Part shown: positions 3,001-28,879 of the stretch, piece after piece
How the letters are laid out: every line of letters begins with the position of its first letter
How positions within the stretch are numbered: the stretch's first letter is position 1
DNA from: a virus
Virus record (IMG/VR): IMGVR_UViG_3300018080_000004
Reading direction: 5' to 3' (one strand)
Length of the DNA: 64,000 nt
Translations under genes and position numbers: made by a program
Notes under the pieces: generated by a model
The model's database searches: none
Seen by the model: only the letters and a program-made list of their open reading frames with translations
Told to the model about the DNA's origin: nothing

Positions 3001-6000
3001 GCCGCGAGATCGGGCGCCTCCGGGAAGAGCTGCGCGTGGCGCTGCAAAGGGGGGACCGGCAGAAGGAGGCGGCGGTCCGCTACGCCCTCGGCATGGCCGA
3101 AGCCGCCCTTGAGATCGCCCTGCGCGAGGCGCGGAGCGGGAAGGACATCGCCGGGGACATCAAGGTGTCCCACCCCGGCGTCGAGGTGAAGGTCTTGCGC
3201 GACCGGGGCGACGACATCCTGCTCCAGGTCAAGGGCACCACGGACGAGGCCGGGATCATCCGAAGCCTCCAGGACGTGTCCGGGAAATACTGGAAGCGGG
3301 CCGGGGGCGACGCCAGGAAGGGGTACAAGTACGCGGTCGCGGACAGCCCCTTCGGCAGGAAGGGAATGGACGAGGCGACGGAGGGGCCGAGGCTCCCCCA
3401 CGACTTCGTGGTGGCGAACCAGCCCACGTGGCAGACCGTGAACGCGCCGGACGGCGGAACGCGGGTCGAGGTCCTCCGGGTGAAGGACTCGAAGTACGTG
3501 GCCGTTCCCGAAAGCGGCAGGCGCAACGCCCGGCGTTTCGCCATCGTCGAAGTCAAGCACGGCGACTACGTGACCCAGGTGAACAACCGTGAAGTGGTCG
3601 GGTGGCTCGTGCGGGCTTTCTACCGCGAGACCGTCGGCGAGTCCCTGGGGGAGGGGATCAATATCCCGAAATACTACGCCTGGGTGAAAACCCTCAAAGT
3701 CGGCGACGAGATCGAGGCGCGGTGGGGCCGGGGCAACCGGGCGCGGGCGCGGATCACCGGGGTGGGCAGTCGGCTCATCACGGCCGCCCTCCTCGAACCG
3801 GTGGGCCAGTGGAAGAAGGGCTTCGACATGACCCTTCCGAAGCCGAGGTCCGGCTCGACGAACTGGGACATCGACGACGGCCCCTTCCCCCTGGACATGG
3901 GCCTCGTGAGCGAGAGCCTCGCCGAGGCGGACGAGTTTGTCCTTCCGGCGGACCCGAAGGAGCGGCCCAAGGTCTACAAGCTCACCCCCAAAGACAAGCG
4001 CCTCCTCAAGCGGACCGTCCACGACGCACTCAAGACCACGTACTTCCGCAGCGCGGGCGAGGCCGTTACCTGGGTGTCCCAGGCCCTCGACAAGATCGGC
4101 TACCAGTTCGGCGGGACCTTCACGGACCGCCTCCAGAACGCACCCGGCTCGGACCTGAAACGGAGCCTGTTCCTCCAGCGGATGACGAACGACCCCTTCT
4201 GGCCGCTCGACGTTACGAACGGCTCGGTCTACCTGACCTTCTACCGGATGGACAGCGGGCGCGTGGAAGTCGTGGGGTACTTCACCGAGGACGTGGAGCG
4301 CGTGGGGGACACCATCGTCGAGGGGATCAATGATCCCTACATCTTCAAGGCCGTGTTCCTCGCGGGCGGTCCGGGCTCCGGCAAGAGCTTCATCGCCAAT
4401 CAGATGTTCGCCGGGACCGGGCTCAAGTTCCTGAACAGCGACCTCGCCTTCGAGTACCTGCTCCGGAAGCGGGACCTCCCGTTCAACATCGACCCGAAGG
4501 ACAATCTCACATACGCGAAGCAGATGGGCGCCAGGGGCCGGGCCAAGGAGATCACCGACCTCCGGAAGGACCTCTGGCTCAACGGCATGCTGGGCCTCGT
4601 GGTGGACGGCACCGGAAGGGACTACGACAAGATCAGCCACATGGCCTCGAACCTCAAAGCCCTGGGCTACGATACGTCCATGGTCTTCGTGAACACGACC
4701 CTCGACGTGGCGAAGCAGCGGAACCTGGAGCGGGAGCGGTCCGTCCCGGAAGAGGTCGTGGTCAACGCTTGGCAGGAAGTCCAGTCGAACATGGGCAAAT
4801 TCCAGGCGTATTTCGGGGGCGACAACTTTGTCATCGTGGACAATAGCAAAGCCCTCGACAAGGCCGGGATCGACCAGATCGGCATGCAGCTCCGGAAGAA
4901 AGCCCTCAAGCTCGTGGGCAAGCCCGTGAAGAACCCGGTGGGCAAGGCGGTCATCGACACGCTCAAGCGGACCGGCGGGAGGACCATGAGCGACCTCGCC
5001 CAGGCCCAGGCCGTCGCGGCTTCGCGCATGCCCAAGTTCATCGGCCACTGCATCGCCGAGTTCGCCGGGCTCTCCGGGTCCGAGATCGAGGGCCTCCTCG
5101 GCGAGGGGAACACCTTCTTCGTCCCGATGGGAGACTCCGCCCCGGCGTACGGCGCGTGGCTCCTCACACGGGCGCACCGGCTCACGGAGGACGAAGAAGA
5201 CAAGCTGACCCCGGAGGAGCGTGCAAGCATCGTGCCCAAAGTCTTCGCATGGCTCCAGGGCGAAGCCGATCCGTGCGACGACGAGTTCCATGCCTGGGCG
5301 GAATCCCAGGGGCTCAACGTGCACAAGGCCGAGGCGGCCGCCTACGACCTCGCCAAGCGGTTCGTGGAGATGCTCACCGGAGGCAAGAGCAAGGGACAGG
5401 TCCCGGCGGGCATCGAGCAAGCTGCCATCGACAAGGGCGTCGCGGTGGAGTACGAGCACACCGGAAACAAGGAGATAGCCCGGAAGATCGCCCTCGATCA
5501 TCTCACCGAGTTCCCGAACTACTACGAAGCCCTGGCGAAGATGGAGGCCGATCTCAAGGCGGCCAAGGGCGGCGCCCCCGCCCCGGCCGAGAGCGTCCAG
5601 GAGAACGTGGGTGTCGTCTACTACAAGGGCGGCAAGGCCGCCACGGTCATGGGCCCTTACCTGACCGTCTCGGACGCCATGCTCGCGGCTGACCGGGTGT
5701 ATCCCCTGCGCGGGAACGAGCAGTGGGAGGACGCCACGGACGAGAACCAGAAGCGCATCACTACGGACGGCTACGTCGAGACCATGCCCTGGGGCGACGC
5801 GGAGGTCATCTCCTCGAAGCCGGGGGCCGTCCTCTACCACGAGGACAGGGTGGGCGCCTCCCTCGACGCGGGGCGCCTACAGGCGCTCCGGGCCACCCTC
5901 GCGGAGCACTTCGCTGGGGACGCCGAGGTCATCGACGAGTTCGTCGGAAGCATCTCGGACACGGGGACGAGCGACGCGGCGGACAAGTTCGCCGTGGAGC

Positions 6001-7193
6001 TCCAGAAGAAGCTCGATTCGGTGGTGCCCGCTCCCCAGATCGTCAAGGTCCAGGCGGATCATCGGTTCGATCCCAGGACCTCCTCGGTGGCAATCTTCTA
6101 CCACGCGGACCCGAACCCCCCGAACGGGATCGTCCACAATGACCCGACCTACACGATCATCCACGTGTGGGGATTCATGAAGGGTGGCGCGGACACGGCG
6201 AAGGTCGAGGCCGAGGCCGGGCTGCGGGCCCGCAAGCCCTATCCCTTCCTCCGGAAGCGGACGGCTGCCCCCGGTGCCATCCAAGACTACATCGTCAAGT
6301 GGTTCCGGACGCAGATGCTCCCGGCCGTCAAGAACACGTCTGAGGGCGTTTTCGTCGAAGCCAAGGACGACATGGAAATCGCTTTCGACATCGTGGCGGC
6401 GGTGGCGTCGGACGCCGGGGCGGACGACGAGACTCTCTACCGGGACCTCGTTCGGGACCCCAAGGCGTTCTTCCGTCGCTGGAAGAAGTACATCCCCAGG
6501 GAGTATTACATCTTCTTCGAGCGGACGGACCTGGACGCGGCCGTCAAGCGGCTCGAAGAGAAGATGCCCCCGTGGGGGTACACCGGCGGCCTGCCCAAGG
6601 GGGTCCCTCACAAGCGGGGCCGCACGGCCTTTCCCAGCAAGCGGCAGATCACCTTCGCCGCCCGGAAAGCCGGGCTGCCCTACGACGAGGCGTGGCTCGT
6701 GGCGCGGGACTACTTCGCCTACGGGATGCCCATCGACAAGATTCTCAAGATGCACAGCGGGATGGACCCGGCCAAGGTTACGGCGGCCGTGGCCTACCTC
6801 CTGACCCGGTACGACCAGCCGAGGACCATGCGGGCCCGGCAGGAGTCCTTCCTGTCCCTGGCGGACCTCTACGGGGAGGCGTGGTACGATGAGGAGCCGG
6901 TGGACGTGTCCAGGTGGCGCGACGCCATCGACCGCATCGGGACCATGCTCAAGTCCAAGCAGTACGTCCAGAGCATCACGGCCGTGGCCGACTCGGCGGC
7001 GGAGGATGCGGTGCGGGAGGCCCAGTCCCTCCGCGACGCTCCGAAGGACGCTTTCCTGACCCTCGCCACGGAGTTCACGGAAGTAGCCCAGCTCCTCCGG
7101 CAGGGCAAGCCCTTCGCCGATGCCCTCCAGCGCCTCATGGGCGTGGAGATCGCCCTCGGCAACGTGGAGGCGGCCCTCGACGAGGAGAGATAG
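1..7193 (+). CDS. Giant modular head-associated polyprotein-like protein, 5'-truncated (>2390 aa)
   Basis: The frame is open from base 3 (GKAARDRQPKQKEK...), so the true start lies upstream of the window. Strong G/C-ending codon bias. More than 20 short modules separated by ESLGE[AG]/ESLAEA/ESVQEN/EGAVREA-type linkers. Confidence 0.85.
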   Translation, partial: GKAARDRQPKQKEKQVAARRVGRRGLARRTAAAKKWHQSSQGARYHRALGDYNRESLRGRSQGFAPRLFEDGLDYFFGDMVLWALDSRSQGARVAPAGSLIEGPSSTPHRGGPDPLGPTGMADMSPHGEFSPHGEISEAVDQPDLIEFWPKTGFIHVASTDRQRLGDVELVFNRHFGDLGEFDSFGPVKKTGTGYYLSIFEPQDEDLYFPTEQEVRRAARSAGRDLEGIKVVYAAKGVRAAYEGLGEGKYRVDIPASDKQAGAMFKVQAKDAGMGVYADPSGKFLIVTTGDAKTLGGLLQRHRLGAQPMEAVLREWETTRFGPLKGGAVGVFRFDSSADAGRFEAAVEKIIAGYDLAGIYRKDAFTRSVELPPEAAGLRGEIEDLAKTHRGKVWEGAVREAFFEYPRIANRRLRKALEDFREVVEQRDGEQYGYYLDSLVAYYTQGRTGVRDVKKPTPRAPGLDPATCAKIEQELKSLMRIAGATPHGESLGEADRSREEIARWTGIIKKTGSRGVERLRRYLGSLALGRDFDETMEAYLERKGLVAFDEWAQDVVHGRIAVERLGEATTTDYEPAPGLIFRVKKQGAFNYLTILHGPSGTLIRRVQLPIKFVRDFVELAKVTLGKVDWDKPFDQVDMGAARRAVGEYDKWVERISPDVGVLVVSMDAPIRRRDRVEAKEVMDIGFLKSKDPYTVMYAWKRQGPVMLAVVSGKKEAERFLDDIKNQGGNGTIFKGDRKNESLGEGMQKYLIKFSSGGTQSSFSRELTTRFGSRSHKLWGTSFAPEGGVLARYEIDIPKEEVERLVQYGQGKIVALTWESVLDEALPRRLQKAMDDYLDTVRSRFGEYEDFAAACIMYYTQPKHGGVQRPTISGTGLSPKIAKKIETEIEGLIRMAGYTPYGSITVRPGRTEGLDEAKVTGPWPKSRGHLAFLKGAHSPEPYEFYLDARGELWRAPVSAVIDIDTGYRIGRWEAPKHMAKRMFDQAVKAFESVGSAVEYERREIGRLREELRVALQRGDRQKEAAVRYALGMAEAALEIALREARSGKDIAGDIKVSHPGVEVKVLRDRGDDILLQVKGTTDEAGIIRSLQDVSGKYWKRAGGDARKGYKYAVADSPFGRKGMDEATEGPRLPHDFVVANQPTWQTVNAPDGGTRVEVLRVKDSKYVAVPESGRRNARRFAIVEVKHGDYVTQVNNREVVGWLVRAFYRETVGESLGEGINIPKYYAWVKTLKVGDEIEARWGRGNRARARITGVGSRLITAALLEPVGQWKKGFDMTLPKPRSGSTNWDIDDGPFPLDMGLVSESLAEADEFVLPADPKERPKVYKLTPKDKRLLKRTVHDALKTTYFRSAGEAVTWVSQALDKIGYQFGGTFTDRLQNAPGSDLKRSLFLQRMTNDPFWPLDVTNGSVYLTFYRMDSGRVEVVGYFTEDVERVGDTIVEGINDPYIFKAVFLAGGPGSGKSFIANQMFAGTGLKFLNSDLAFEYLLRKRDLPFNIDPKDNLTYAKQMGARGRAKEITDLRKDLWLNGMLGLVVDGTGRDYDKISHMASNLKALGYDTSMVFVNTTLDVAKQRNLERERSVPEEVVVNAWQEVQSNMGKFQAYFGGDNFVIVDNSKALDKAGIDQIGMQLRKKALKLVGKPVKNPVGKAVIDTLKRTGGRTMSDLAQAQAVAASRMPKFIGHCIAEFAGLSGSEIEGLLGEGNTFFVPMGDSAPAYGAWLLTRAHRLTEDEEDKLTPEERASIVPKVFAWLQGEADPCDDEFHAWAESQGLNVHKAEAAAYDLAKRFVEMLTGGKSKGQVPAGIEQAAIDKGVAVEYEHTGNKEIARKIALDHLTEFPNYYEALAKMEADLKAAKGGAPAPAESVQENVGVVYYKGGKAATVMGPYLTVSDAMLAADRVYPLRGNEQWEDATDENQKRITTDGYVETMPWGDAEVISSKPGAVLYHEDRVGASLDAGRLQALRATLAEHFAGDAEVIDEFVGSISDTGTSDAADKFAVELQKKLDSVVPAPQIVKVQADHRFDPRTSSVAIFYHADPNPPNGIVHNDPTYTIIHVWGFMKGGADTAKVEAEAGLRARKPYPFLRKRTAAPGAIQDYIVKWFRTQMLPAVKNTSEGVFVEAKDDMEIAFDIVAAVASDAGADDETLYRDLVRDPKAFFRRWKKYIPREYYIFFERTDLDAAVKRLEEKMPPWGYTGGLPKGVPHKRGRTAFPSKRQITFAARKAGLPYDEAWLVARDYFAYGMPIDKILKMHSGMDPAKVTAAVAYLLTRYDQPRTMRARQESFLSLADLYGEAWYDEEPVDVSRWRDAIDRIGTMLKSKQYVQSITAVADSAAEDAVREAQSLRDAPKDAFLTLATEFTEVAQLLRQGKPFADALQRLMGVEIALGNVEAALDEER
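4323..4985 (+). other. P-loop kinase module (AAA_33/Zeta-toxin-like) inside ORF1
   Basis: GINDPYIFKAVFLAGGPGSGKS Walker A, FLNSD, LVVDGTGRDY, MVFVNTTLDVAKQRNLERER lid motif. Confidence 0.8.
5230..5570 (+). other. DUF5661-like module inside ORF1
   Basis: DDEFHAWAE..G...HKAE followed by KGVAVEYEHT..KEIARKIALDHLTEFPNYYEALAKME, which matches my recollection of this phage domain. Confidence 0.65.
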
Positions 7194-7208
7194 CCCAGAG
7201 AGGTAAAG

Positions 7209-9827
7209 ATGAAGTCCATACTCGAAAAGATCGGCCTCGCCAGTCCGGGCGAGACAACCTTCTTCCGGCTCGCGGTCGCGGGATACGACCCGGACTTCTT
7301 CGTGCCCGTCGTGCCGGTGCTCGAAGCGGCCCAGCCCGCCGGGAGCCTCCGGTGGCTCCTTGGCGAGGCGCCGTCCCTCTGGGACATCCTCTCCCTCCAC
7401 AAGGCGGTCCTGGAGAGCCGGGAGTACCGGGACGCCAACGGCGTGGAGTACGAACAGTTCGAGGACGGTGGAGACGTGTACGTCTTCAACCGGGTCTTCC
7501 CCGGAAGCCTCCAGCTCTTCACTCCCCTCGGCGAGGAGATCAATTACAAGCCGTGCGGCGTGTGCGGGGTCAGCCCGGCGGCGGAGATGTACCACGGCCC
7601 CAACCTGTGCGCCGAGTGCGCCGGGGTGGTCATCGAGAAGATCAAGGCCGAGGACGGGAAGCGGGTGGGCGTCCACACGGCCGAGGCCAAGCGGTGGTGC
7701 TCCGAAGCGGGCATCTTCCAGAAGCGGTGCATCCCGTTCGCGGACAAGATCGAGGACATGCCCGCCCTCCTCGCCAAGGCCACGGGGGAGTTCCGGGTGG
7801 CCGAGGATTCCAGGAGCACTGTCGCCCTCGTGGCGCGGCGCGTGGAGCGCGGGCTGCTCGATCCCAAGGTCGCCGAGGCGTTCCTCGTCGAGGAGGACTT
7901 GCCCACCACGGTTCCCCGCCGGGTGCTCTTGCCCACCGTCCCGGTGGACAACGATTTCGTAACGGCGGAGGCCATCGAGGAGTGGTTCGAGGACTGTCAG
8001 GAGGAGTTCGGCTACCGGACCCGCGAGGCCATGCCCCATGGGGTGGCCTACTTCGGCGAGGACGAGGTGGTCGTGGTGGCTTTCGATCACCTGCTTTCCG
8101 AGGAGGCCAAGGACCTCGTGGTGGGGGCGGCGGACGCTCAGCGCGTCCTGGAGGGCCTCATCGCCCCCGCCGAGGCCAGCACGTCCTTCCACTCGGTCCT
8201 CGTGCCCAAGGAGCGCGGCCCGGCTTTCCTGGAGGCCCTGGGGTTCTCCACCGAGACAGGGAGCGAGGAGCGTAAGCGCGTACGTTACCTCCAAGCCCCA
8301 TCGGAGCGGTTCGCTCCCGGTTCGATCAAGCGTGCCATTCTGGCCGACGGGACGGAGATCACCTTCGGCGAGAGGCTGGAGCGCCCGGACGATCTCATGG
8401 AGAAGGCGTGGGAGGAGTTCGACGCGGCCGTCTCCGGGAAGGACCCGGCCGAGATCGAGGCCGGGCTCGTGAAACATCTGGACGGGGGCGCGAGCGGCCT
8501 GGGCGGGGCGGCCGAGGCGGCGCTCCAGAAGCTCGACGCGCTCGCCGATCCGGCGCCGGAGAACCCGGCCGACATCAAGGCCCGGCTCATGACCGAGAAG
8601 ATGAAAGTCCAGAAGCTCCTCTTTCCGGTCTCGAAGTACAGCACGGAGGAGGCCAAGGCCAAGGCCAAGAAGCTGGGTTTCTCTCCCCAGGAGGCCGAGA
8701 CGCGGGACGAGTACGTCCACGTGCGGGTGGCGAAACCGAAGCAGGGCGTCGTGACCCGCACCTTCGACTTCGGGAAGGGCATCAAGGCCGTGGGGCAGCG
8801 CGTGGCCGACTCCCAGGTCCGGGTCTACGACGACCCGGCGGACATGGGGCGCCTGCTCCGCGAGATCGCCCTCCACAACCTCGTGGAGGGGGCGGACAAG
8901 GTGGCGATCACCGGGCCACGGTCCTGGGCCCTGGGCTACCCCACCGGGGACGCCTCCCTCCTCGTCTACTTCCCCCGGCACGGGATCGCCCGCGTCTACG
9001 CCAGGGAAGACCTCGCCTTTCGGTTCGAGGATGAGGCCCTCAGCGAGCAGGCCATCCCGAATCCGCCCCCGGACACCGAGGCGGAGAACATGGACCAGAT
9101 GCTCGACGGGATCGTCCGGAAGCTCATCTTGAGCGGCTCCCTCGATGCCCTCCAGGACGTGGAGTTCGACGAGGACACGTCGAGCATTTACCTCTTCTTT
9201 TCGGCAGGCGTCCAGCGCGACGAGATCGACGAGATCATGCGGGACCTCTCCCGGCAGTACGCCCAGACCCAGCTCGTGGCGTCGCCGGATCAATCCCTCC
9301 CGGACGAGGTGGGCGAGTCGGACTGGTGGGTCGTCTTCGTCCCCGGCAAGGATTCGGAGGGGGCTTTCGGAACGCCAGACCCGGCCAAGTGGGGCGCGGC
9401 CAATCTGCCCTCCACGGTGCCCCAGGGCTTCTCCCAGTACATGGACCAGGACACGGCCCAGTCCATCGCCAAGGGCCTCAGCCTGGACAAGGCCATCGAC
9501 GCCCTCACCACCGAGGACCTCGACGGGCTCAAGGAGGTGGACTTCAACCCGTACACCTTCGCCCTGGCGTTCGCCGGGCACTTCGGCCTCGACGAGAAGG
9601 CCATCACGTCCTCGCCGCTCGCCCCCGGCACCGTGTTCCTCAACGTGGCGAACGAGTCGGGGGTCGTGAAGCGGCTCGACTTCACCCAGCCCGGCGTCGG
9701 CGCCGGTGTCAACGTCGTGGTCACCGACGCGGCCAACGGCCGCAAGGAGACCGTGGGGAACTTCAAGCAGCCCTCGATCATGGGGCTCCTGGACAGGCTG
9801 GGAGAGAACCCGGCATGGAGAGCGTAG
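7209..9827 (+). CDS. Large head-region hypothetical protein (872 aa) with a Zn-finger-like segment
   Basis: ATG after an AGAGG SD. CGVC...CAEC motif. VQKLLFPVSKYSTEEAKAKAKKLGF segment resembles small phage head-protein domains. LGE/LE-type sites present. Confidence 0.75.
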   Translation: MKSILEKIGLASPGETTFFRLAVAGYDPDFFVPVVPVLEAAQPAGSLRWLLGEAPSLWDILSLHKAVLESREYRDANGVEYEQFEDGGDVYVFNRVFPGSLQLFTPLGEEINYKPCGVCGVSPAAEMYHGPNLCAECAGVVIEKIKAEDGKRVGVHTAEAKRWCSEAGIFQKRCIPFADKIEDMPALLAKATGEFRVAEDSRSTVALVARRVERGLLDPKVAEAFLVEEDLPTTVPRRVLLPTVPVDNDFVTAEAIEEWFEDCQEEFGYRTREAMPHGVAYFGEDEVVVVAFDHLLSEEAKDLVVGAADAQRVLEGLIAPAEASTSFHSVLVPKERGPAFLEALGFSTETGSEERKRVRYLQAPSERFAPGSIKRAILADGTEITFGERLERPDDLMEKAWEEFDAAVSGKDPAEIEAGLVKHLDGGASGLGGAAEAALQKLDALADPAPENPADIKARLMTEKMKVQKLLFPVSKYSTEEAKAKAKKLGFSPQEAETRDEYVHVRVAKPKQGVVTRTFDFGKGIKAVGQRVADSQVRVYDDPADMGRLLREIALHNLVEGADKVAITGPRSWALGYPTGDASLLVYFPRHGIARVYAREDLAFRFEDEALSEQAIPNPPPDTEAENMDQMLDGIVRKLILSGSLDALQDVEFDEDTSSIYLFFSAGVQRDEIDEIMRDLSRQYAQTQLVASPDQSLPDEVGESDWWVVFVPGKDSEGAFGTPDPAKWGAANLPSTVPQGFSQYMDQDTAQSIAKGLSLDKAIDALTTEDLDGLKEVDFNPYTFALAFAGHFGLDEKAITSSPLAPGTVFLNVANESGVVKRLDFTQPGVGAGVNVVVTDAANGRKETVGNFKQPSIMGLLDRLGENPAWRA

Positions 9828-11863
9828 CCCGACGACTTGCGGCCCGGCGCGAGACGCTTACCGAGAAGGTGCACATACCTCCCGGTTCTCTGGGGATTCC
9901 CCGCGCCGACATGCCGCAGGTGAAGAGCACGGACGTTCCGGAGTTCCTCCAGTGGCTCGGAGGGCGCGGGGTCTCGACCCGGCGCACCCAGGTCCAGGTG
10001 GACAAGATCAAGCCGACCCAGCGCGAGATCGACATCGACAAGGTGGCGGCCATGGTGGCGGCGGCGCCGGAGGCGGCCCTTGCCAAGCCGGTCATCATCT
10101 CCAAGGACTTCTACCTCCTCGACGGCCACCACCGATGGCTCGCCCTCGTGAACCGGGACAGGGAGTTCCGGATCAAGACGGTCCAGGTGGACGTTCCGAT
10201 CCGGACACTCTTGGACCTCACTGGGAGATTCCCGAAGACGACCCACAAGCGCATGGGGGAGGCTCGGCGCAAGCGGAAGGTTACGCCAGGGATCAAGCAG
10301 TCCGGCCTCCCGAAGAATTTTCGCTCGAAAATCACCTCGATCAATAAGGCAATAAAAGTTACTACCGAGCTTCAAGGGCTCTGGGACGGGTCGGAGTGGG
10401 ATGCGGTTGCGAATAGGGCCGGAGTGAGCCAGTATAGCAGTGCTCCGGAGGACAAGAAAAAGGTCTCGGACACGTGGTTCGACACGCTCTATCGGGTCAT
10501 TGAGAAGTTCGACGAGTGGACGAAGACGCTGGAAGACCTTCGTCCCATCTTTGGCCCGGAGAATGTGACCTTCTTCAATATCACGCCGGAGGTCCGCTAC
10601 TCGGATGCCGCCACCGAGGTGGAAAAGGAAATCTATGGGTTGCAGCGTCGATGGAAAAATGCTTTCGATACATTCCCCACCGACATCCGGATTCCAGCGA
10701 CGACTCAGCGGGCCAAGCAAGAGGGACACGGCATCTACTGGATGCGCGACCGCGTGAAGGAGGTCAAGAAGGATCTCGACGATTCTCGCGCCGGAAAACC
10801 CGTGGACATTGGAAGCTCATTCGGCAGCCCTGATTCTCCGTTCGCCGTCGCCATGCACGCCCACAACCGGCTGGGGAATATCTTCGGTTACAATGAGCTC
10901 CAACCGGCGAAGGACGGCCTCCGCGATTTCAAGGATATAGTGCTTCGTATTCTTGAGCTCGCGCCGAAGATGGAGGCCAAGGACTGGAAGGAAGTCCGCG
11001 TCGGGAAGATGGGTCCCTTCGAGATCATCTACCGATTCCAGGGAGGCACGCGCTTCACGTCCGACGAGTCGGACAAGATCAAGGCTTCCGTCGGCGAGGC
11101 GATCCGGGTGCTGCGCCGGTTCAAGATCAAGGATCAGTACGTCTCCGGCATGCTGGTCTTCACACGGCCGAACGACCCACGCCTCGACGACGCGGGCGGC
11201 CGCTACTTCTATTCGTCGGACGAGCTCTACGTGGGGTGGTTCGGATACGGGTCCTCCTCGGCCCAGATCGCTACCGCCACCCAGACCGTCATCCATGAGC
11301 TCGGGCACCGTGTCTGGGGGCGCCTCCCTGGGGGAGCGAAAAAGCAGTGGCGGGCGTTCTTCGATTTTCTCACGGAGCCCCTCCCGGCCGCTGTCAAGAA
11401 GGACCTTCCATGGCTCCGGGACCTCTACCAGGATGCGGCAAGCCACGGCGAGTACAAGCCGAAGCGCAAGTCCTACGACCCGCCCTTCCGGACGTTCAAG
11501 TGGCTCGAGGAGAAACACCCCCTCGCGGGTGCGGTGATCCGCCTGGAGCAGTGGCGGACGGATGAGGACTTCCTCCGCGTGGTGGACAAGATCGAGAAGG
11601 GTGGTATCGCCCGGAAGTTCGTGACGGCCTACGGGAACACCACGGCCACCGAGGCGTTCCCGGAGGTCTTTGTGGGGATGCTCTATCCGAGCACGGCCAG
11701 CAAGGAATACACTCGGCCGGAGCCGCTCGTGGCAGAATACTTCAAGTACATCCTGGGGAGCATGCGCGAAGATGAAGAAGACAACGAAAAGCAAAGGATC
11801 GTCGAAGAAGCCGAGCGGCGCGTCCGCGCCCGGCGGCAACGGCGCCCCAAGCATCCACGATAA
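9815..11863 (+). CDS. Two-module protein: ParB/Srx-like N-terminal domain plus zincin (HExxH) metallopeptidase
   Basis: Start moved to ATG 9815 (GGAGAG SD). IPRADMPQ...KPTQ...VIISKDFYLLDGHHRW is ParB-like. After MGE|A come AGGRY, VIHELGHRVW (11294-11308) and YGNTTATEAFPEVF, a lethal-factor/MPTase-like pattern. Confidence 0.8.
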   Translation: MESVARRLAARRETLTEKVHIPPGSLGIPRADMPQVKSTDVPEFLQWLGGRGVSTRRTQVQVDKIKPTQREIDIDKVAAMVAAAPEAALAKPVIISKDFYLLDGHHRWLALVNRDREFRIKTVQVDVPIRTLLDLTGRFPKTTHKRMGEARRKRKVTPGIKQSGLPKNFRSKITSINKAIKVTTELQGLWDGSEWDAVANRAGVSQYSSAPEDKKKVSDTWFDTLYRVIEKFDEWTKTLEDLRPIFGPENVTFFNITPEVRYSDAATEVEKEIYGLQRRWKNAFDTFPTDIRIPATTQRAKQEGHGIYWMRDRVKEVKKDLDDSRAGKPVDIGSSFGSPDSPFAVAMHAHNRLGNIFGYNELQPAKDGLRDFKDIVLRILELAPKMEAKDWKEVRVGKMGPFEIIYRFQGGTRFTSDESDKIKASVGEAIRVLRRFKIKDQYVSGMLVFTRPNDPRLDDAGGRYFYSSDELYVGWFGYGSSSAQIATATQTVIHELGHRVWGRLPGGAKKQWRAFFDFLTEPLPAAVKKDLPWLRDLYQDAASHGEYKPKRKSYDPPFRTFKWLEEKHPLAGAVIRLEQWRTDEDFLRVVDKIEKGGIARKFVTAYGNTTATEAFPEVFVGMLYPSTASKEYTRPEPLVAEYFKYILGSMREDEEDNEKQRIVEEAERRVRARRQRRPKHPR

Positions 11864-12624: not shown

Positions 12625-12999
12625 ATGACGAAGGGACGGCATATTCTCGTGGACCTCATCCAGGTCCCAAAGGACGCCCTCGCCGACGCCGACAGCGTGG
12701 TCGAGCTCATGAAGCGGGCGGCCAGACAAGCCGGAGCAACGGTCCAGGGCTCCCTCTGGACGCGCCTCGATCCGCCAGGGTTCGCGGCCGTCGTCCTCCT
12801 GAACGAGAGCCACATATCGCTTCACGTGTACTCCGAAGAGCAGACGGCCGCCCTGGACGCTTTTTGCTGCGGAAAGGCCGATCCGAGGGTGGCCGTGGAG
12901 ATCATCTGCTCCGAGCTGGGAGGGATCATCACCAACGCGGAAGATAGGCCCCGGTTCCTGGAGCGCCCCCCAGGAGAAGATCAAGAAAAATCTTCTTGA
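12625..12999 (+). CDS. speD: S-adenosylmethionine decarboxylase proenzyme (short prokaryotic pyruvoyl type)
   Basis: G(R)HILVDL N-terminus, GAT, VVLLNE|SHISLHVY self-cleavage site, LDAFCCG with the catalytic Cys. Confidence 0.9.
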   Translation: MTKGRHILVDLIQVPKDALADADSVVELMKRAARQAGATVQGSLWTRLDPPGFAAVVLLNESHISLHVYSEEQTAALDAFCCGKADPRVAVEIICSELGGIITNAEDRPRFLERPPGEDQEKSS

Positions 13000-16100: not shown

Positions 16101-19100
16101 CGATCTCGGAAACTACTACATCGACGGGAAGGGACCCAGGCCCGACAGAAACGTGCGGGCCAAGACGACGTACGATTTCGATGCGGGGTGGGCCGAGGAG
16201 GTCGAGAAGGAAGCCATCAAGGTTCTCCGGAAGAACGGCATCGCCGTCCGCGAGGGTCTCGGCGAGGCGAAGGAGTACGCTCTGTGGGCCAAGCCTACGG
16301 GCGAAGACGGACCACTGAGCCAGAAGCTCCTCCTCGGCGGCCCGAACGTCACCAAGCAGGACGTGAAGAAGGTGATGACCCTCGCCGCGAAAGAGGGGTG
16401 GCACGACTTCCGCATCCAGGTGATCGACCTCTCGAAGCCGTTCAACGCCAGTCAGGCGTTCGTGAACGCCATCGACATGCGGGCCGTGGACCGGATCATG
16501 CGCGGTGAGGGTGTGGGAGTGTCCACCCAGGACATCCTCCAGTCCATCGCCGACGGCGTGGCCGAGCATCTGGGGCGCCCCGTCGCGGTCGAGGTGGACG
16601 CCATCGGCGGCGGCCTCTGCCGGGGCTACGTCGAGCCCACGTCCGCCCTGGAGGTCTTCGCCGAGGCGCTGACCCACCTGGGCGAGGCCGAGACGTATCG
16701 GACCACGAAAGTCGTGGCGCTCTACGGTAAGGGGCGTGACCAGATCAACCTCGAAGTGGGCACCGTGCTCAAGGACATGGGCGGCGGTAAGTACAAGGTC
16801 GTTTCGGACACCTTCGGGAAGGGCCAGATCGGGACACTCTCCGACGAGGGGAAGAAGGGCCTCGCCTCCGAATCTGTCGAGGTCGTCATCGACCGGAACG
16901 AGTCCATCTTCCGGGCCATCGGCCTACCCCTCGCCTTTGGCGCGGACGTGCAGGGAGGCAAGGCGGTCGAGGCGCTCAGCGCCGAGGCCCTGGGCGAGGA
17001 CAGCCTCTTCGCCCCCACCAAGGTGAAGCCCAAGGGCGAGGAGGACAACCCGTCCAACCGGGCCGCCAAGGCCGGAAAGGCCGTCCTGAGCAAGGGCGGA
17101 TCGAAGAAGGCCGCCAAGGACCCCAAGACCGTGAACCGGGACGACTCCGGCGACAAGGCCGGGGGCAAGACCCCGAAGACCGTCCCCACGGACGCCAGCG
17201 GCGGACCGGGGACCTCCGGCGAGGCCGACCCGGCCGCCGGATATTCCAAGGCCACCGTGGGCGTGAAGGGCAGCCTCTTCACGGTCATGGGCAAGAAGAA
17301 GGGCATCCCCGGTCCCAAGGCCCAGGGCGGCGAGGCCAGCGGCGCGGTGGTGACGCCGGGCGTGGACATCAAGTCCTTCGAGGCCCTGTGCCCCCACTGC
17401 TCGAACAGCGTCAAGGAGAACGTCCTCCGGCGCTACGCCCCGCGCCTCGTGGAGCAGGACCCCGTGTCCGGCGGCGGGCAGGCGGCCACCTCCCCGGCGA
17501 ACGACAAGCCGGGCAGCGTCGAGGCCCCGCCCGGCGCGGCCTCCACCCCTCCGAAGAGCGAACCGGCCAAGGAGCCGGAGAAGCCCACGGAGATGGAGCC
17601 CACGAAGAAGGAGCCCGACCAGGAGAAGGGCGGCCCGACCCAGGGCCTCGTGTGCCCCTTCTGCGGGAAGGAAATCCCCAGGGACGTGCTCAAGGGCATG
17701 ATGGGCGAACTCCTCGCCCAGCTCGCGGCCCAGCTCCAGCAAGGCTCGACGAAGCCGCCGGAGACAAGCGGCCAGCCGGAGGGCGAACCCGAAGAGGAAG
17801 AGCCGGAAGAGGAAACCCCGGCCGCCCCGGCGGAGCCCCCGAAGGAAGCCCCTGAGACTCCGGCGGGCGAGACGCCCCCGGCGGCACCCCAAGCCGAGAA
17901 ACCGAAGGAGTCGTGGCTCAGGGAGAAGGCTCCCAAGCTGCTCGGAGCGCGTCTGACCGCCGACGACTGGCGCAAGCTCGCTCCCGAACTGGGGAACGCC
18001 ACGGCAGACCGCCGCAAGCGTTTCCTCAACAGCTTCGTGAGTGGAGACGCCGCTTTGGACGTTTACACGTCTGGAGGGGGATCGTCGTCGATCAGCCTCG
18101 GAGGGAAAAGCAACGCCAAGGCGCTGAACAAGCTCTTCCAGGACAGGGGCCTCGACGTGCGCGTGGAGTCCGTCCAGGAGGCCGGGCGCACCGACTTCGT
18201 GAGCGAGTTCGCGGGCTTCCAGATCACCTACTACAACGCGAACGAGGGCTTCGACGCCTACGACGACCAGGAACTCCAGAACGCCATCGAAGCAAGGTTC
18301 CCTGGAAGCTTCAAGGGGATGGTGGTGGACACGGGCAGGTACTTCCTCGTGAAGGTTCCGGTGAATCAGGCGGCCAAGTTCCGCCAGATGATCTCCCAGC
18401 AACTCCTCAAGGTTCAGACGCCCGCCTATTTGTCCGCGTCGGCACGTTCCCAGGTCTACCACCAGGGGGTCCTCCGCCTGACCGAGGCGGGGCTCTTCGA
18501 GGTCCTCGAACAGCGGACCGCCCCCGTCGGCACCGGCGAGCCCGGCGGCCAGATCGTGTTCTCCACCGACGTGAACGCGGCCGGGCGCCAGGGCATCCTC
18601 GGCAAGCTCGTGAATTGGTTCAAGACCAGGATCAATCGGGTGATGTCCACCTCGAAGGTGGGCGAGGTCCTGGGCAAGGCGGGGAAGGAGTTCGGCTACT
18701 CCATCGGGCGTACGTTCCGTGGACGCTACGTGGACGCCGAGGGCAAGACCTACGACGAGAAGAGCTTGAGCGTCGAGATTCTCGGCGTGCCCAAGCAGTT
18801 TCTCCTCAAGGTCGGCGAGGCCCTCGCCAAGGCGTTCGAGCAGGAGGCCGTTCTCGTGCGCTCTTACGTGGACCAGAAGCCCCTCTTCGTCTACGCCGAG
18901 AGCCTCGGAGAAGCGAGGGACATCACGGTCGAGATGAATCGCTACGGCCACCTCGAAATCTCCGACGGCCGCAAGTCTCTCTACGTCCAGCGCGACTACG
19001 ACGTGGACAGCGTGCTCGACAGCCTCACGAAAGAGGAACAAGAAGAAGTGCGGCAGGGCTGGGAAGTTACGATCAAGTCGCGGGAGCCTCGATACTCGAT

Positions 19101-23048: not shown

Positions 23049-23434
23049 TGGCCGATCTCAAGCTGCCAGACATCCGGCAGGAAAAGGTGGTGGGTCTCCA
23101 CTACGAGCCGGGCCGTGGGCGCGAGATCGTGGTCATTCAGCTACCCTCGGAGGAGGGATCGAGCACGTACCGGATCAATCTCCGCGAGCCGGAGCACTAC
23201 CGGTATCTTGCCGACCTTCCGAATGGGCGAAGGATCATAGACATTCTCCGGATAGAGGGACACCTTGCGGTGGTCCCCGCCACCGGTGAATACTTGAAAC
23301 TGGAGGATCAAGATGCCGCTGCTTCTTCAGGACTCAATGCCGCTGTCGTTCAAGCTCTTGGAGCGTTCCGAAGCGGCAGATGGCCGCGTCCACGTCCGTG
23401 GGAGGTTCCAGCACTGCGACCTCAAAAACCGTAA
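23048..23434 (+). CDS. Hypothetical protein overlapping the protease start
   Basis: TAATG coupling to the upstream gene. The last 122 nt overlap the protease gene in another frame. Confidence 0.6.
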   Translation: MADLKLPDIRQEKVVGLHYEPGRGREIVVIQLPSEEGSSTYRINLREPEHYRYLADLPNGRRIIDILRIEGHLAVVPATGEYLKLEDQDAAASSGLNAAVVQALGAFRSGRWPRPRPWEVPALRPQKP

Positions 23435-25964
23435 CGGTCGCATCTACCCCCGTTCCGTGTGGGAGCGGCACCTTCGGTCGGACGCCGACTTCATGAAGTC
23501 CATCCGGGATGGCCGCGTGTTCGGCCACCTGGAGCACCCCGACGACGGCCGGTCCAACCTGAACCTTGCCGCCATCAAGATCGAGGGTCTGGAGATCAAG
23601 CCGAACGGCGAGATCATCGGCGAGCTGTCCACGCTCTCGACCCAGGCGGGGAAGACGGCGGCGGCGCTCTTCAACGATGGCCTCAAGATCGGCATCTCCT
23701 CCAGGGGGCACGGTTCCGTCCAGAAGAACGGGGAAGGGATCGACGAGGTGCAGGAGGACTTCGTGCCGGAGGCGTTCGACCTCGTGGCCGAACCTTCGAC
23801 ACCGGGGGCCGACCTCGTGAAGGAAGCCCTGGACAAGTACGTCAAGGCGGAGGCTCTGACAGAGGGGAAAATCCCGGAGGACGTACAGCGGCGCGTCCGT
23901 CGGGAGAACGACCTCGCCATGCTGACCTCCAGGCTGGAGACCATGGAGCGCCTCGTGAAGGCGAAAGCGACGACCTCGGAGATGGTCCACGAAGCTTCGG
24001 ACCTCCTGTTCGACCTCCACAGGAAGTTCAAGAAGACCCTCCGGGCCGACGAGTTCGTGAATCTCGAAGAGCGCATCGTCTCCGTGAAGGAGTTCTCGCG
24101 GGCCTCCATGCCGGAGGACGACGACATGAGCGTCGGCAGCGGCATGTTCCAGGGTGAAGAAGACGACGACCTCGACATGGGCTACGACGAGCCCGAAGAC
24201 GAGGAGGGGTGCGCGACGCCCGGCCAGCGCATCCGCTCCGGCGGGCGCGGGCGCGGGATGGCTCGCGGCGGGGGACGCGGCCCCATGGGGCGCCCCTACG
24301 GCGAGCAGGACGACGAGCCCGACAACGGAGACGACGACGAGGAGATGCCCGGCGAGGAGGAGTGCGGCCCCATGTACCCGGAGATGCGCGGCCGAGTCCG
24401 TTCGCGGGGCGAGCAGGACGACGACGGCTGGACCGACGAGGAGGAGGACGATTTCGACTACGGCATGGACGCCGACGAGTACGAGAGCGTCGTGCGGCGC
24501 CGCTGGCGGAGATACGTGAAGGAGCGCCGCCGGATGGCTCGCCGCATTGCCCTTCGGGAGGTGGCCGATACGGCCGCCGCCGACGAGCTCGTCCTCTTCA
24601 TCGAGAACGACGGCCAGCTCTACCGGCAGCAACACCAGCCCATCCAGAAGAACCTCATCACCAAGTGGGCGAAGGGCGTCTACGACTCCCGGCTCGCCGT
24701 CAAGCTCTTCGGCTACCTCGTGGACAACGGCGCCAAGAAGTACGCCAAGGAGATCGGCGACGGCCAGCCCTGGAATCAGATGTTCGACCGGGACACCCGC
24801 ATCCGGGCGGCCGAGCTGCTCCGGGATTCCTTCGAGGTCTCGGCCAAGGAAGGCGAGTTCGCGGACTACCTGCCCAAGAAGTACGCGGGCTTCGTCCCGG
24901 AGGGGCGTCGCCGTAGGCGCGTACGGGAGCGAGTGCGTTACTCTTCCAACGATGTAGAGACGTACTTTGGGGCGGAAGACCCGGCGCAACTGCTGGATGG
25001 TCGTCCGGTCAAGGTGATCGCCAAAGAATACTGCGATCAGTTTCCGCGTATGTTTGGAGAACCCGCAACGCGACGGGACCGGGAAATAGTATTGTCCATC
25101 TTGCAGGACGCGCAAGATGCGATGGGGGAGCGCCGGGTACGTGAGCAGGCCACGGCCGACCTCTCCCACGAGATCGAGGTCAGCATCGACCTCTCCGACC
25201 TGACCCCGGAGCAGCGCGAGAAGTTCGACGTGTTCCGGACAGGCGAGCCCCTGGAGACCATGGCGACCGTCATCAAGGCCGCGCTCCCGGAGACCCTCGG
25301 CATCGAGGACTGCCACGGCGAGTGGGAGGGGGACAAGATCGTCATCGAGATCGAGTTCACCGGCAATCCCAAGCAGGTGGCGAGCGCCGTCTCCGACGTG
25401 ATGGGGCAGCGGGTCAAGCTGGAATCCAAGATGCGGCCCACGGGCGCGGCTCCTGCCGGATTCCATCCCGACGCGGCCGGGCTCATTCAGGGACTCCGGG
25501 ACAGGTGCCGGGCGCTCATGAGCGAGAACGCCAAGATGGAGACGGAGAACCGGCGCCTCCGGGAACTCGGCGACGCCATGGCCGAGGTGCACCGCCGCGA
25601 GCGGCTCCAGCGGCGCCAGGAGGAGATCATCCGGGACTACCCGGCCCTCCAGGCCGCCCTCGTCGAGCTGAACAAGGCCCGGACCGTGGAAGAACTGGAA
25701 GAGAAAGCCGGGGTCTTCCTGGGCATCCAGGGCGTTACCGTGAACTTCCGGCGTCCCGTGAAGGACTCCGGCAACGGCAAGAAACCCAAGAAAACCGAAA
25801 GCGCACCGAGTCAGGGGAGCACCAGAGTGCAGGAAGGCGTCCCTCGTCCGGGAGAGCTGGGCGGGGGCACGACCGTCACCGACGGGAACGCACGCACCAA
25901 GGGGCCCGTAGAGGAGAGCGAGACGACATTCAGTCGCCTCGGCCGCCACTACCGCACCCGCTGA
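23313..25964 (+). CDS. Prohead maturation protease (T4 gp21-like) fused to cargo modules and a scaffold-like coiled coil
   Basis: KNRNGRIYP, FGHLEHP (His), GISSRGHG (Ser), FDLVAEPST (Asp). GGAGGA SD. About 650 aa C-terminal extension. Confidence 0.93.
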   Translation: MPLLLQDSMPLSFKLLERSEAADGRVHVRGRFQHCDLKNRNGRIYPRSVWERHLRSDADFMKSIRDGRVFGHLEHPDDGRSNLNLAAIKIEGLEIKPNGEIIGELSTLSTQAGKTAAALFNDGLKIGISSRGHGSVQKNGEGIDEVQEDFVPEAFDLVAEPSTPGADLVKEALDKYVKAEALTEGKIPEDVQRRVRRENDLAMLTSRLETMERLVKAKATTSEMVHEASDLLFDLHRKFKKTLRADEFVNLEERIVSVKEFSRASMPEDDDMSVGSGMFQGEEDDDLDMGYDEPEDEEGCATPGQRIRSGGRGRGMARGGGRGPMGRPYGEQDDEPDNGDDDEEMPGEEECGPMYPEMRGRVRSRGEQDDDGWTDEEEDDFDYGMDADEYESVVRRRWRRYVKERRRMARRIALREVADTAAADELVLFIENDGQLYRQQHQPIQKNLITKWAKGVYDSRLAVKLFGYLVDNGAKKYAKEIGDGQPWNQMFDRDTRIRAAELLRDSFEVSAKEGEFADYLPKKYAGFVPEGRRRRRVRERVRYSSNDVETYFGAEDPAQLLDGRPVKVIAKEYCDQFPRMFGEPATRRDREIVLSILQDAQDAMGERRVREQATADLSHEIEVSIDLSDLTPEQREKFDVFRTGEPLETMATVIKAALPETLGIEDCHGEWEGDKIVIEIEFTGNPKQVASAVSDVMGQRVKLESKMRPTGAAPAGFHPDAAGLIQGLRDRCRALMSENAKMETENRRLRELGDAMAEVHRRERLQRRQEEIIRDYPALQAALVELNKARTVEELEEKAGVFLGIQGVTVNFRRPVKDSGNGKKPKKTESAPSQGSTRVQEGVPRPGELGGGTTVTDGNARTKGPVEESETTFSRLGRHYRTR

Positions 25965-26008: not shown

Positions 26009-27466
26009 ATGATTCGAGGCGCAAAGTCGGGCTACTCGACCGGCTCCTTGAACGAGAAGTTCGTGGCGAAGCACCGCGCCATCGTGGAACGCTTCAAGAA
26101 CTTCACGCTCCCGGAGATCGGGCTGAACGAGAGCCAGAACCCCTTCGAGGCCATGGCCGCCAAGGCGGGCAAGGCCAACGTCGAGGACCTCAACCCCTTC
26201 GCCATGACGAAGGCGGCGATCCTCATGCAGAACTTCGTGAACGAGTCGGTGAAGCACCTGGACGAGACGAGCCGGGCCAACCTCCCCACGTGGATCAAGA
26301 ACGGCCTCGCCCTCATCTCCGTCACCTTCGCCGAGGACATCGTGGACCAGCTCATCTCGGTCCAGCCGATGGCGAACAGGAAGGGCCTCGTGCACTACCT
26401 GGACATCATCACCGAGGCGAGCAAGGGCAACATCGCGGCGGGCACGCGGCTCTTCAACGCCCTCCAGGGCTTCCGGGGAACGGAGAACTACTCCTCGGAG
26501 AAGGTCGTGGGCGAGCCCATCGGCGCGGCGGGGGCCACGGACTACAACCCGACCCTCGGCTACCGCCCGATCATCCCCGGCACCTTCGTGATGACGGACG
26601 GGGCGCTCATCATCCGCGACGACCGCAACGGCAACCTCATCGGCGACATCGGCGGCGGCGGCCCGGCCAACACCATCAACTACGTGTCGGGCGTGGTGGA
26701 CGCTCGGTTTTCGGCCATCACCACGGGGCCGGTGGTCGCAAACTACGAGTACAACATCGAAGCGGCCCTGCTCCTTCCGGAGTACGGGATCGTGCTGCGC
26801 CAGGAGTCTCTCGAAGCACGGCCGAGGGCCCTGGGGGCCACCTGGAGCCAGCAAGCGGTGTTCGACTTCCTCAACGATTTCGGCATCGACGCCGAACCCA
26901 CCATCATCGACGCGGGCGCCCGCATCATCCAGATGGAGACGTGCAAGCACGTCATCAACTTCCTGACCAACGTGGCGGCCGGGGGCAGCGTGGTCTTCGA
27001 CAACGCTCCTCCCGCGACGGCGGTGCCCTACACCCTGCACATCAAGACGTTCTCCTTCTACGTGAGCCGCCTCCAGAACCTCATCTGGGAGAAGACCCAG
27101 ACGGTGCGGCCGAACGTCCTGGTGATCTCGCCCGACATCTGGTTCATCGTCGCGGCGCAGGACGGGTTCGAGGGCGTCACCCCGGTGGCGAACGACGGGA
27201 TCGCCGGTCCTCGCAAGATCGGCACCCTCACGCGCCACGGGATCGAAGTCTTCGCGGACCCGACCTACTCCCAGGAAAGCGGGGTGCTCACCTACAGGGG
27301 GCCGGAGTTCGTCTCCACGGCGGCCGTGATGGGGATGTATATCCCCCTCTACAAGAGCCCGGTCCACGTGCGCGGGTTCCGCAAGGACGTGGCGCTGCTC
27401 TCCGAGTACGCGCTGCACGTCGTGGACTCGCAGCAGATCGGCCTGCTCTCGGTCATCAATCTCTGA
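26009..27466 (+). CDS. Major capsid protein (T4 gp23-like)
   Basis: Follows the protease. Propeptide ends NESVKHLDE|TS, then DQLISVQPM, LEARPRALGATWS (the R.L.A.W motif) and a typical C-terminus. AAGGAG SD. Confidence 0.92.
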   Translation: MIRGAKSGYSTGSLNEKFVAKHRAIVERFKNFTLPEIGLNESQNPFEAMAAKAGKANVEDLNPFAMTKAAILMQNFVNESVKHLDETSRANLPTWIKNGLALISVTFAEDIVDQLISVQPMANRKGLVHYLDIITEASKGNIAAGTRLFNALQGFRGTENYSSEKVVGEPIGAAGATDYNPTLGYRPIIPGTFVMTDGALIIRDDRNGNLIGDIGGGGPANTINYVSGVVDARFSAITTGPVVANYEYNIEAALLLPEYGIVLRQESLEARPRALGATWSQQAVFDFLNDFGIDAEPTIIDAGARIIQMETCKHVINFLTNVAAGGSVVFDNAPPATAVPYTLHIKTFSFYVSRLQNLIWEKTQTVRPNVLVISPDIWFIVAAQDGFEGVTPVANDGIAGPRKIGTLTRHGIEVFADPTYSQESGVLTYRGPEFVSTAAVMGMYIPLYKSPVHVRGFRKDVALLSEYALHVVDSQQIGLLSVINL

Positions 27467-27769: not shown

Positions 27770-28879
27770 GTGGGCGTGCTGACAGCGGAAACCAAGGCGC
27801 AGAAGTGCCACGTCGCTTTCAAGGGAGACGTGTGGTGCCCCTTTCCCCTCAAGGTTGACACCTATCAGGGGTGCGGCCATGAGTGCCTCTACTGCTCCGC
27901 CCGCCTCCAGCGCAGAACAGCCTACCAGCGCACCTTCCACGTGCCCAGGTCCATCGAGAGCCTCAAGCGACAGATGGCCGGGAGAACCGAGTCCACGGCC
28001 TGGAAGCTCGCCCTGGAGGGCCTGACCATTCAATGGGGCTACGCGGCCGACCCCTTCCCTCCCATCGAGATCGAGCATAAGACCTCCCTCGACGCCCTCC
28101 GGCTCTTCGCCCATGTGGGCCTTTCCATCTCCATCTGCACGAAGTCCACCATCCCAGGGCAGAAGCCCTACCTCCAGGAGCTCAAGCGGCTGGGGAACAA
28201 GGTTCTCTTCCGCATGTCCCTGTCCACTCTGGACGACGAAACGGCGGCAATCCTCGAACCGAACGCCCCGCCACCGTCCGAGCGCCTCGCCCTCCTCCGG
28301 CGACTCAAGGACGCGGGCCTCCACACCCTCGTCCGGCTCTCGCCCACGATCCCAGGCGTTACGTTTGAGCGCGTAACACCGGAGGAGATCGGCAAGACGC
28401 TCCGACGGCTGCGGGAAGCATGCGACTACGTGAACTTCCACCCCCTCCAGGTGGACTTCCGGTCCGAGGACACGGCCTGGAAACCCATGTTCGAGGCCCT
28501 CGGCCTGTCCTATTCGAGCTGGAAGAAGCTCTACTTGGACCGAGCGAGGGGGCGGGAGAGTCATTTCCTCACCCCGGCGGACCACTGGCGCACAGCCCTC
28601 ATACGAAACGCCCGGCAGGCGGCCGACGAGGAGGGGGTCAAAGTGGGATTCGACTCCGGGCCGGGGACCATGGGGGCTTTTCTATCGGACGGTCCCACGT
28701 GCTGCGGGGGCTGGGACGGCATCCGGCACAATCCGGACGCCATCATCCCCATGGTGCGCGACGGCCGAGTGAACTCCATGGAGTTCAAGCGGGACTTTTC
28801 TCTTCCTCCGAAGCACTTGGGGGAGGTTAGGGCGGCTATTTACAAGCTCTTCGGCAAGGCGCGGAGGGCGCGGACATGA
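27770..28879 (+). CDS. Radical SAM protein (SplB/Rv2578c-like)
   Basis: VDTYQGCGHECLYCSAR (CxxxCxxC), ADPFPPIE, SICTKS, LEPNAPPPSERL. Confidence 0.88.
   Translation: MGVLTAETKAQKCHVAFKGDVWCPFPLKVDTYQGCGHECLYCSARLQRRTAYQRTFHVPRSIESLKRQMAGRTESTAWKLALEGLTIQWGYAADPFPPIEIEHKTSLDALRLFAHVGLSISICTKSTIPGQKPYLQELKRLGNKVLFRMSLSTLDDETAAILEPNAPPPSERLALLRRLKDAGLHTLVRLSPTIPGVTFERVTPEEIGKTLRRLREACDYVNFHPLQVDFRSEDTAWKPMFEALGLSYSSWKKLYLDRARGRESHFLTPADHWRTALIRNARQAADEEGVKVGFDSGPGTMGAFLSDGPTCCGGWDGIRHNPDAIIPMVRDGRVNSMEFKRDFSLPPKHLGEVRAAIYKLFGKARRART

Follow-up and report, generated by a model that had tools for sequence, protein, structure and literature searches.

A divergent SAM-lyase-like domain within a giant head-region protein of an uncultured myovirus-like phage

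In a 64,000-nucleotide stretch of the IMG/VR virus record IMGVR_UViG_3300018080_000004 (hereafter, the window), an uncultured myovirus-like genome with ~65% G+C, the giant open reading frame (ORF) P0002 contains a 130-residue module that is, with high confidence, a true S-adenosylmethionine (SAM)-lyase-family domain with an intact active site. SAM lyases are known as small products of early genes, with which phages weaken type I restriction and BREX. P0002 is one of several giant multi-module ("polyvalent"-type) proteins whose genes lie shortly before those for an S77 prohead protease and the capsid protein. The explanation that we favor is that the domain is an active lyase, packaged within P0002, released by the protease, and delivered into the host; taken as a whole, we assign it a probability of about 0.6, whereas for packaging and protease release as such, we infer roughly even odds. 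If this explanation is true, the lyase would be active before transcription, when the incoming DNA is most exposed, and a metabolite-destroying enzyme would join the catalog of virion-delivered anti-defense cargo. Whatever the delivery route, the module belongs to a branch of SAM lyases that is missed by present Pfam thresholds and GenBank phage annotation.

The module was first pointed out in an earlier note made from the letters of this DNA. Translation of positions 18511–18900 reproduced its 130-residue reading exactly, together with the flanks ...F-E-V-L-E/Q... and ...V-Y-A-E-S-L-G-E/A... (a slash marks a proposed boundary or cleavage position), and the codons that it had named were correct: Tyr at 18727 is Y73, Glu at 18757 is E83, and E-Q-E at 18838–18846 is E110, Q111, and E112 in the numbering of the module. 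When residues 1780–1990 of P0002 were used as a phmmer query against 1.84 billion representatives, 326 proteins were retrieved at E ≤ 1e-3 and 127 at E ≤ 1e-10; the representatives are clusters at 50% identity, and the family comprises at least 326 clusters. The aligned part was always approximately residues 1806–1924. Both ends of the homology thus lie only a few residues from the proposed boundaries, indicating that these are natural domain limits. Most of the homologues are stand-alone proteins of 160–210 amino acids with the domain at the C-terminus, ending within a few residues of the module end, and 8 of the 150 matches listed exceeded 400 amino acids, including proteins of 1690, 1566, and 1069 amino acids. 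A word-index search restricted to long proteins recovered the query alone. In the window, P0002 was the only ORF matched by the hidden Markov model (HMM) of the family, and no second copy of the domain was found among the ORFs. The whole giant ORF had no megablast match in GenBank phage records, and neither the module nor its homologue P0085 had a tblastn match in 50,697 such records. Judging from these sequences, the module belongs to a large, mostly unannotated, and divergent SAM-lyase branch, with the signature GG-x-I-V-F-S-T-D-V-N, then G-R-Y, then D-E-K-S, and then F-x-Q-E-S-V-L-V.

Two further observations concern the architecture of the homologues. The metagenomic protein P0014 (1069 amino acids) carries the domain at least twice, with a nucleotidyltransferase-like segment in between (weak NTP_transf_2 and Polbeta matches). 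On three viral contigs from IMG/VR (L012, L014, and L016), the homologue frame stops immediately after ...S-T-D-V-N-A-V-D-K-K, giving an 89-amino-acid product, whereas a full homologue of 196 amino acids with the same N-terminus occurs on L015. Truncation, recoding, or an interruption of the intron or intein type could account for the stop.

In terms of sequence profiles, PF23780 (S-AdoMet_lyase) was the only Pfam family matching the module, and phrog_2226 matched it at E = 0.007. Among the homologues, 41 of 60 matched PF23780 at E ≤ 0.01 (best E = 1.4e-8), and all the long homologues checked fell under its cut-off. When a profile of the family was searched against the PDB, the top match was the SAM lyase Svi3-3 (6zm9; E = 7e-5) and the third was the T3 SAMase (7ock), a weak match (E = 0.37); the catalytic motifs were aligned in both.

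The AlphaFold2 model of the module (predicted local distance difference test, pLDDT, 86.3; predicted template modeling score, pTM, 0.80) has the order beta-alpha-beta-beta-alpha-beta-beta and shows the ferredoxin-like, PII-like beta-alpha-beta-beta-alpha-beta fold of the SAM-lyase superfamily. The best six Foldseek matches in the PDB were all SAM lyases (entries of Svi3-3 and the T3 SAMase; probability 1.00), followed by CutA and PII proteins, which were likewise reported as structural neighbors of Svi3-3 by its authors (PMC7877911). In an exhaustive VIA search of 48,161 chains, the Svi3-3 chain 6zm9 (Z 10.7, root-mean-square deviation 2.9 Å, 116 residues) was the only one with Z ≥ 8, and the next was the SAM-AMP lyase 9gab (Z 7.8). 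A feature search of the ESM Atlas gave only sub-threshold matches (0.79), to unnamed viral clusters. The matches in BFVD included annotated S-adenosyl-L-methionine hydrolases of T7-like phages. The same fold was also found there in long uncharacterized phage proteins, namely A0A0C5AMW7 (Cyanophage P-TIM40, 769 amino acids), A0A1P8DIX9 (923 amino acids), and A0A4D6BGS1 (1408 amino acids), with template modeling scores by query of up to 0.61. The occurrence of SAM-lyase-like modules may therefore extend more widely among large phage proteins.

In Svi3-3, Gly56, Glu69, and Gln104 of the active site are strictly conserved, Glu105 and Ser71 make further contacts, Tyr58 forms a cation–pi contact with the sulfonium, and the substitution E69Q or E69A abolishes activity (PMC7877911). 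The profile-to-6zm9 alignment showed that the equivalents of all six ligand-site residues are present in the module as G71, Y73, E83, S85, Q111, and E112. We counted the column conservation over 76 diverse homologues: G71 and Q111 were conserved in all 76, S85 in 75, E83 in 69, Y73 in 68 (plus six with Phe), and E112 in 50. The best-conserved columns of the family are thus the SAM-binding residues of Svi3-3, as expected for an enzyme in which selection has maintained the same chemistry. The assignment to the phage SAM-lyase superfamily, based on the fold, the profile, and the active-site residues, is solid, and from it we infer the activity itself. The view of the earlier note that the module is SAM-lyase-like is backed by all three lines of evidence. 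The comparison with phage SAM lyases that it had proposed gave matches to these enzymes in both the profile and the Foldseek searches, and the T3 pattern that it had given (E-K-T-V-R-V, W-E-Q-D-C-V-L-V, and L-V-Y-A) is visible in PDB chain 7ock_L. By homology, the lyase domain would form a trimer with SAM bound at the subunit interfaces, and would convert SAM to methylthioadenosine and homoserine lactone.

The proposed delivery begins with the giant precursor P0002, which would be built into the prohead. There, the S77 protease would cut it after Glu in hydrophobic-x-Glu contexts, above all at [LM]-G-E, and cuts at V-L-E/Q (or L-T-E/A) and at S-L-G-E/A would free a lyase of ~14–15 kDa. The freed lyase would enter the host with the DNA and lower SAM ahead of all phage gene expression, and this would weaken SAM-dependent defenses, such as type I and type III restriction and BREX. 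Packaging, cleavage, and action at injection make a plausible reading, consistent with the gene order, the enrichment of [LM]-G-E, and the flexible linker after the domain.

Cleavage by T4-type S77 proteases follows the Glu of L/I-x-E sequences, and the window encodes both an S77 protease and Glu-ending motifs of this kind. In an unbiased scan of the giant ORFs, LGE was the top tripeptide (20 observed versus 4.4 expected; z 7.3), with GEA third. The motif [LM]GE occurs 13 times in P0002 versus 2.0 expected (~6-fold enriched) and seven times in the first giant ORF versus 1.5 expected, whereas the capsid, tail, and other proteins have four copies in ~10,000 residues and the tail genes nearly lack it. 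The giant ORFs contain the longer motif ESLGE five times, with Ala, Gly, or Val as the next residue. A repeat or recombination at the DNA level was rejected as its origin, because the codons differ at synonymous positions, which places the constraint at the level of the peptide rather than the DNA. The copy directly after the domain lies in a low-confidence linker, with pLDDT <50 from approximately residue 1929 in an extended AlphaFold model. On the N-terminal side, E1796 of V-L-E precedes the first Gly of the conserved GG by 12 positions (with 11 residues in between), the same spacing as in a semi-conserved motif of the homologues, hydrophobic-x-Glu-[Ala/Gly/Ser]-[Ile/Val], which was found in 62 of 101; Glu occupies this position in 41%, versus a background of 13%. 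L-T-E/A, eight residues before V-L-E/Q, is an alternative candidate for the N-terminal site.

The gene neighborhood places P0002 in the head-gene region (Table 1). It is divided into many segments by spacers of acidic and Pro/Ala-rich low complexity, and the SAM-lyase domain was the sole nameable domain in the Pfam and phrog scans. Three giant ORFs lie upstream of it (3–11863, + strand) and have the LGE/ESLGE motif in common with it. The protease and capsid genes follow 3–5 kb downstream of the module gene on the same strand, and the capsid protein is only 24–27% identical to known Gp23-type capsid proteins (tblastn). After the radical-SAM gene, collagen-like, sheath, tape-measure-like, and baseplate genes continue on the same strand. 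The SpeD-type gene and the lyase domain make two different SAM-consuming enzymes within 6 kb. The S77 domain occupies the first ~230 residues of the protease, and the remainder consists of acidic or RGG-like low complexity and extra segments, which is unusual for the family.

Table 1. Coordinates of the SAM-lyase-like module, its sites, and the surrounding genes in the window
Feature	Coordinates	Strand	Description
Giant ORF P0002	13123..20568	+	2481 amino acids, multi-module, uninterrupted; carries the SAM-lyase-like domain
SAM-lyase-like module	18511..18900	+	P0002 residues 1797–1926, 130 residues
Conserved core of domain	18538..18894	+	P0002 residues 1806–1924; span aligned by homologues
V-L-E (E1796)	18502..18510	+	Hydrophobic-x-Glu; candidate N-terminal cleavage site
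G71-R72-Y73	18721..18729	+	Equivalent to Svi3-3 G56-V57-Y58; ribose packing, cation–pi contact with sulfonium (roles from PMC7877911)
E83-K84-S85	18757..18765	+	Equivalent to Svi3-3 E69-N70-S71; E69 essential for activity (PMC7877911)
Q111-E112	18841..18846	+	Equivalent to Svi3-3 Q104-E105; B-loop, binds homoserine moiety
E-S-L-G-E linker	18898..18912	+	Residues 1926–1930, directly after domain; candidate C-terminal cleavage site
First giant ORF	within 3-11863	+	At least 2376 amino acids; Zeta-toxin/AAA_33 kinase and DUF5661 domains; phrog_12810 (E 1e-44)
Next ORF after first giant ORF		+	872 amino acids
Third giant ORF	within 3-11863	+	ParB-like nuclease domain
ParB_N gene		+	Between the ParB-like nuclease ORF and the SpeD-type gene
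SpeD-type S-adenosylmethionine decarboxylase	12625..12999	+	Intact, directly upstream of P0002; Pfam AdoMet_dc (E 1.8e-24)
Three small ORFs		+	Between P0002 and the S77 protease gene
S77 (T4 gp21-type) prohead protease	23313..25964	+	883 amino acids; Peptidase_S77 (E 1.4e-13), phrog_207 (E 1.7e-38)
Gp23-type major capsid protein	26009..27466	+	Pfam Gp23 (E 8.6e-23); tblastn to phage major capsid proteins
Radical-SAM enzyme	27770..28879	+	Just after the capsid gene, in the structural operon; Pfam (E 5.1e-11)

Among the large relatives, P0003 (1690 amino acids, carrying the domain, on a metagenomic contig) adjoins ParB_N and a DUF5661 protein of 2084 amino acids, and P0016 (1566 amino acids, with the domain at the C-terminus) has a T4 gp13-like gene on one side and tail genes on the other, and adjoins an ART-PolyVal protein; such surroundings are those of the polyvalent proteins. 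Most of the stand-alone homologues whose context was inspected are on short contigs with unannotated neighbors. A degenerate DNA pattern for GG-x-I-[VI]-F-S-T-D-V-N-A was used to locate further relatives in IMG/VR.

Several observations weigh against packaging, cleavage, and delivery of an active lyase. The module alone matched PF23780 only weakly (E = 0.019; 15.4 bits versus a cut-off of 28 bits), and a single-sequence phmmer search of residues 1780–1990 against the PDB gave a chance match only. The V-L-E/Q site lies in a predicted beta-hairpin of moderate confidence (pLDDT ~65) with no clear linker, and, according to the model, may be structural instead of a cleavage site. The likely propeptide sites of the capsid protein are L-N-E or V-N-E, not L-G-E, and LGE is therefore not proven as a site of the S77 protease. 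Moreover, the LGE enrichment was absent from the related giant proteins of the contigs L001 and L005, save for one ORF of L001, indicating that the motif is specific to this phage and is not a family trait. In two near-complete IMG/VR phages with an S77 protease (G001 and G002), the stand-alone homologue is encoded 33–52 kb from the protease gene, among small ORFs; with relatives so far from the head genes, packaging as a family trait is not evident. The radical-SAM enzyme in the operon needs SAM, making an unrestrained late lyase unlikely, and it might be speculated that a lyase held as a precursor until it is sealed in the capsid fits this need. The amount of enzyme is also a consideration. 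The cellular SAM pool is roughly 1e5 molecules, as a rough estimate. At the turnover of Svi3-3, ~9.5 per second (PMC7877911), a few tens of packaged copies would take minutes to drain such a pool, which may be slow.

The packaging model could be extended to the whole of the large unannotated clade, whose members would then routinely be virion cargo, either as modules of giant head polyproteins or as small proteins with an N-terminal pro-sequence of 50–75 residues that the prohead protease could remove. The pro-sequence would end at hydrophobic-x-Glu before Ala, Gly, or Ser, 12 positions before the first Gly of GG; SAM would be depleted from DNA entry onward, and the uncleaved precursor would spare late SAM enzymes. 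We regard this extension as rather doubtful.

The module might, alternatively, be an active SAM lyase in a P0002 that is neither packaged nor processed, and act in the infected cell, for example late, leaving progeny DNA unmethylated or shutting down host SAM metabolism, with LGE as a linker or assembly signal. Both the stand-alone homologues of G001 and G002 and the capsid propeptide region without LGE would fit such action. However, the P0002 gene is located in the structural operon near the S77 protease, the motif selected at the peptide level ends in Glu, like the sites of T4-type proteases, and a late cytoplasmic lyase would starve the radical-SAM enzyme of the phage itself. We consider action in the infected cell an unlikely explanation.

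It is less probable still that the domain cleaves a SAM-derived signal, such as SAM-AMP, and serves as an anti-CRISPR protein against CorA-type type III systems. In its favor, the structure that ranks second in the match to the model is the SAM-AMP lyase 9gab, whose Glu and Gln correspond to the conserved ones of the module (PMC12255297). Nevertheless, the structural match is closer to Svi3-3 (Z 10.7 versus 7.8), and the family profile matched Svi3-3 in the PDB, whereas 9gab was not matched. Furthermore, G-x-Y is conserved as in Svi3-3, and Leu stands four positions beyond the conserved Gln in 65 of the 76 homologues, resembling the Ile of Svi3-3 and not Thr112 of the SAM-AMP lyase. The extended AMP (adenosine monophosphate)-binding site of the Clostridium botulinum SAM-AMP lyase (Thr110, Thr112, and Tyr122) had no counterpart in the module, as judged indirectly through the Svi3-3 alignment.

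A catalytically dead PII/CutA-like module that organizes the giant protein in the capsid by trimerization or ligand binding would agree with the fold, because the members of the PII-like superfamily are mostly non-enzymatic binders, but it is very improbable considering that all the SAM-contacting residues of Svi3-3 are kept and form the most conserved columns. A chance match of short motifs as the source of the resemblance to SAM lyases, which the modest single-sequence Pfam E-value would allow, is effectively refuted by the profile and structure searches, both of which rank SAM lyases first, though from the same homologue alignment.

Known systems offer comparisons both for the domain and for its proposed delivery. 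The T3 gp0.3 SAMase (7OCK and 8BB1) resembles the module in fold (Foldseek probability 1.00) and in the aligned stretch E-K...E-Q-D/E-x-V-L-V...V-Y-A, although its sequence similarity is weaker than that of Svi3-3 (E = 0.37). The T3 SAMase is made first among the early gene products, and it also polymerizes the host MetK. Svi3-3 (6ZM9/6ZMG/6ZNB; Guo et al. 2021, PMC7877911) shares the ferredoxin-like PII-type fold (Z 10.7 over 116 aligned residues), and the motifs G-x-Y, E-x-S, and F-x-Q-E-S/A-V of the module align with G56/Y58, E69/S71, and Q104/E105, with Leu in the module at Ile108 of Svi3-3. In contrast, the identity is 16–18%, the first helix of the module is longer (~29 residues), and Svi3-3 is a small stand-alone protein, whereas the module is part of a 2481-amino-acid protein encoded in a structural operon. 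The SAM-AMP lyase has the fold, the catalytic Glu, and the B-loop Gln in common with the module, but its match is lower (Z 7.8), its AMP-contacting Thr residues are unmatched in the module, and the G-x-Y of the module is as in SAM lyases.

For the proposed delivery, the comparison is with proteins known or predicted to be delivered with the DNA. Polyvalent proteins are giant multi-domain proteins encoded with virion genes, for which packaging and injection have been predicted (Iyer et al. 2017, PMC5512222), and T4 Alt and the internal proteins, some of them proteolytically processed, are a precedent for packaged proteins delivered with DNA against the host (PMC5512222). In giant phages, the head proteases process many ejection proteins (PMC10052503). 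ParB-like and kinase domains in the ORFs neighboring P0002, and the ART-PolyVal protein adjoining P0016, are likenesses to the polyvalent proteins, which, on the other hand, have an in-built zincin peptidase, whereas cutting by the S77 head protease at many internal sites is proposed here. The terms S-adenosylmethionine, SAM hydrolase, and AdoMet do not occur in the full text of PMC5512222, so a SAM-lyase domain is apparently not listed among the polyvalent-protein domains there, and full-text literature searches yielded no paper in which SAM lyases are connected with polyvalent, ejected, or internal head proteins. The setting is what differs from T3 gp0.3 and Svi3-3: instead of being a small early protein, the domain lies inside a giant protein of the head region.

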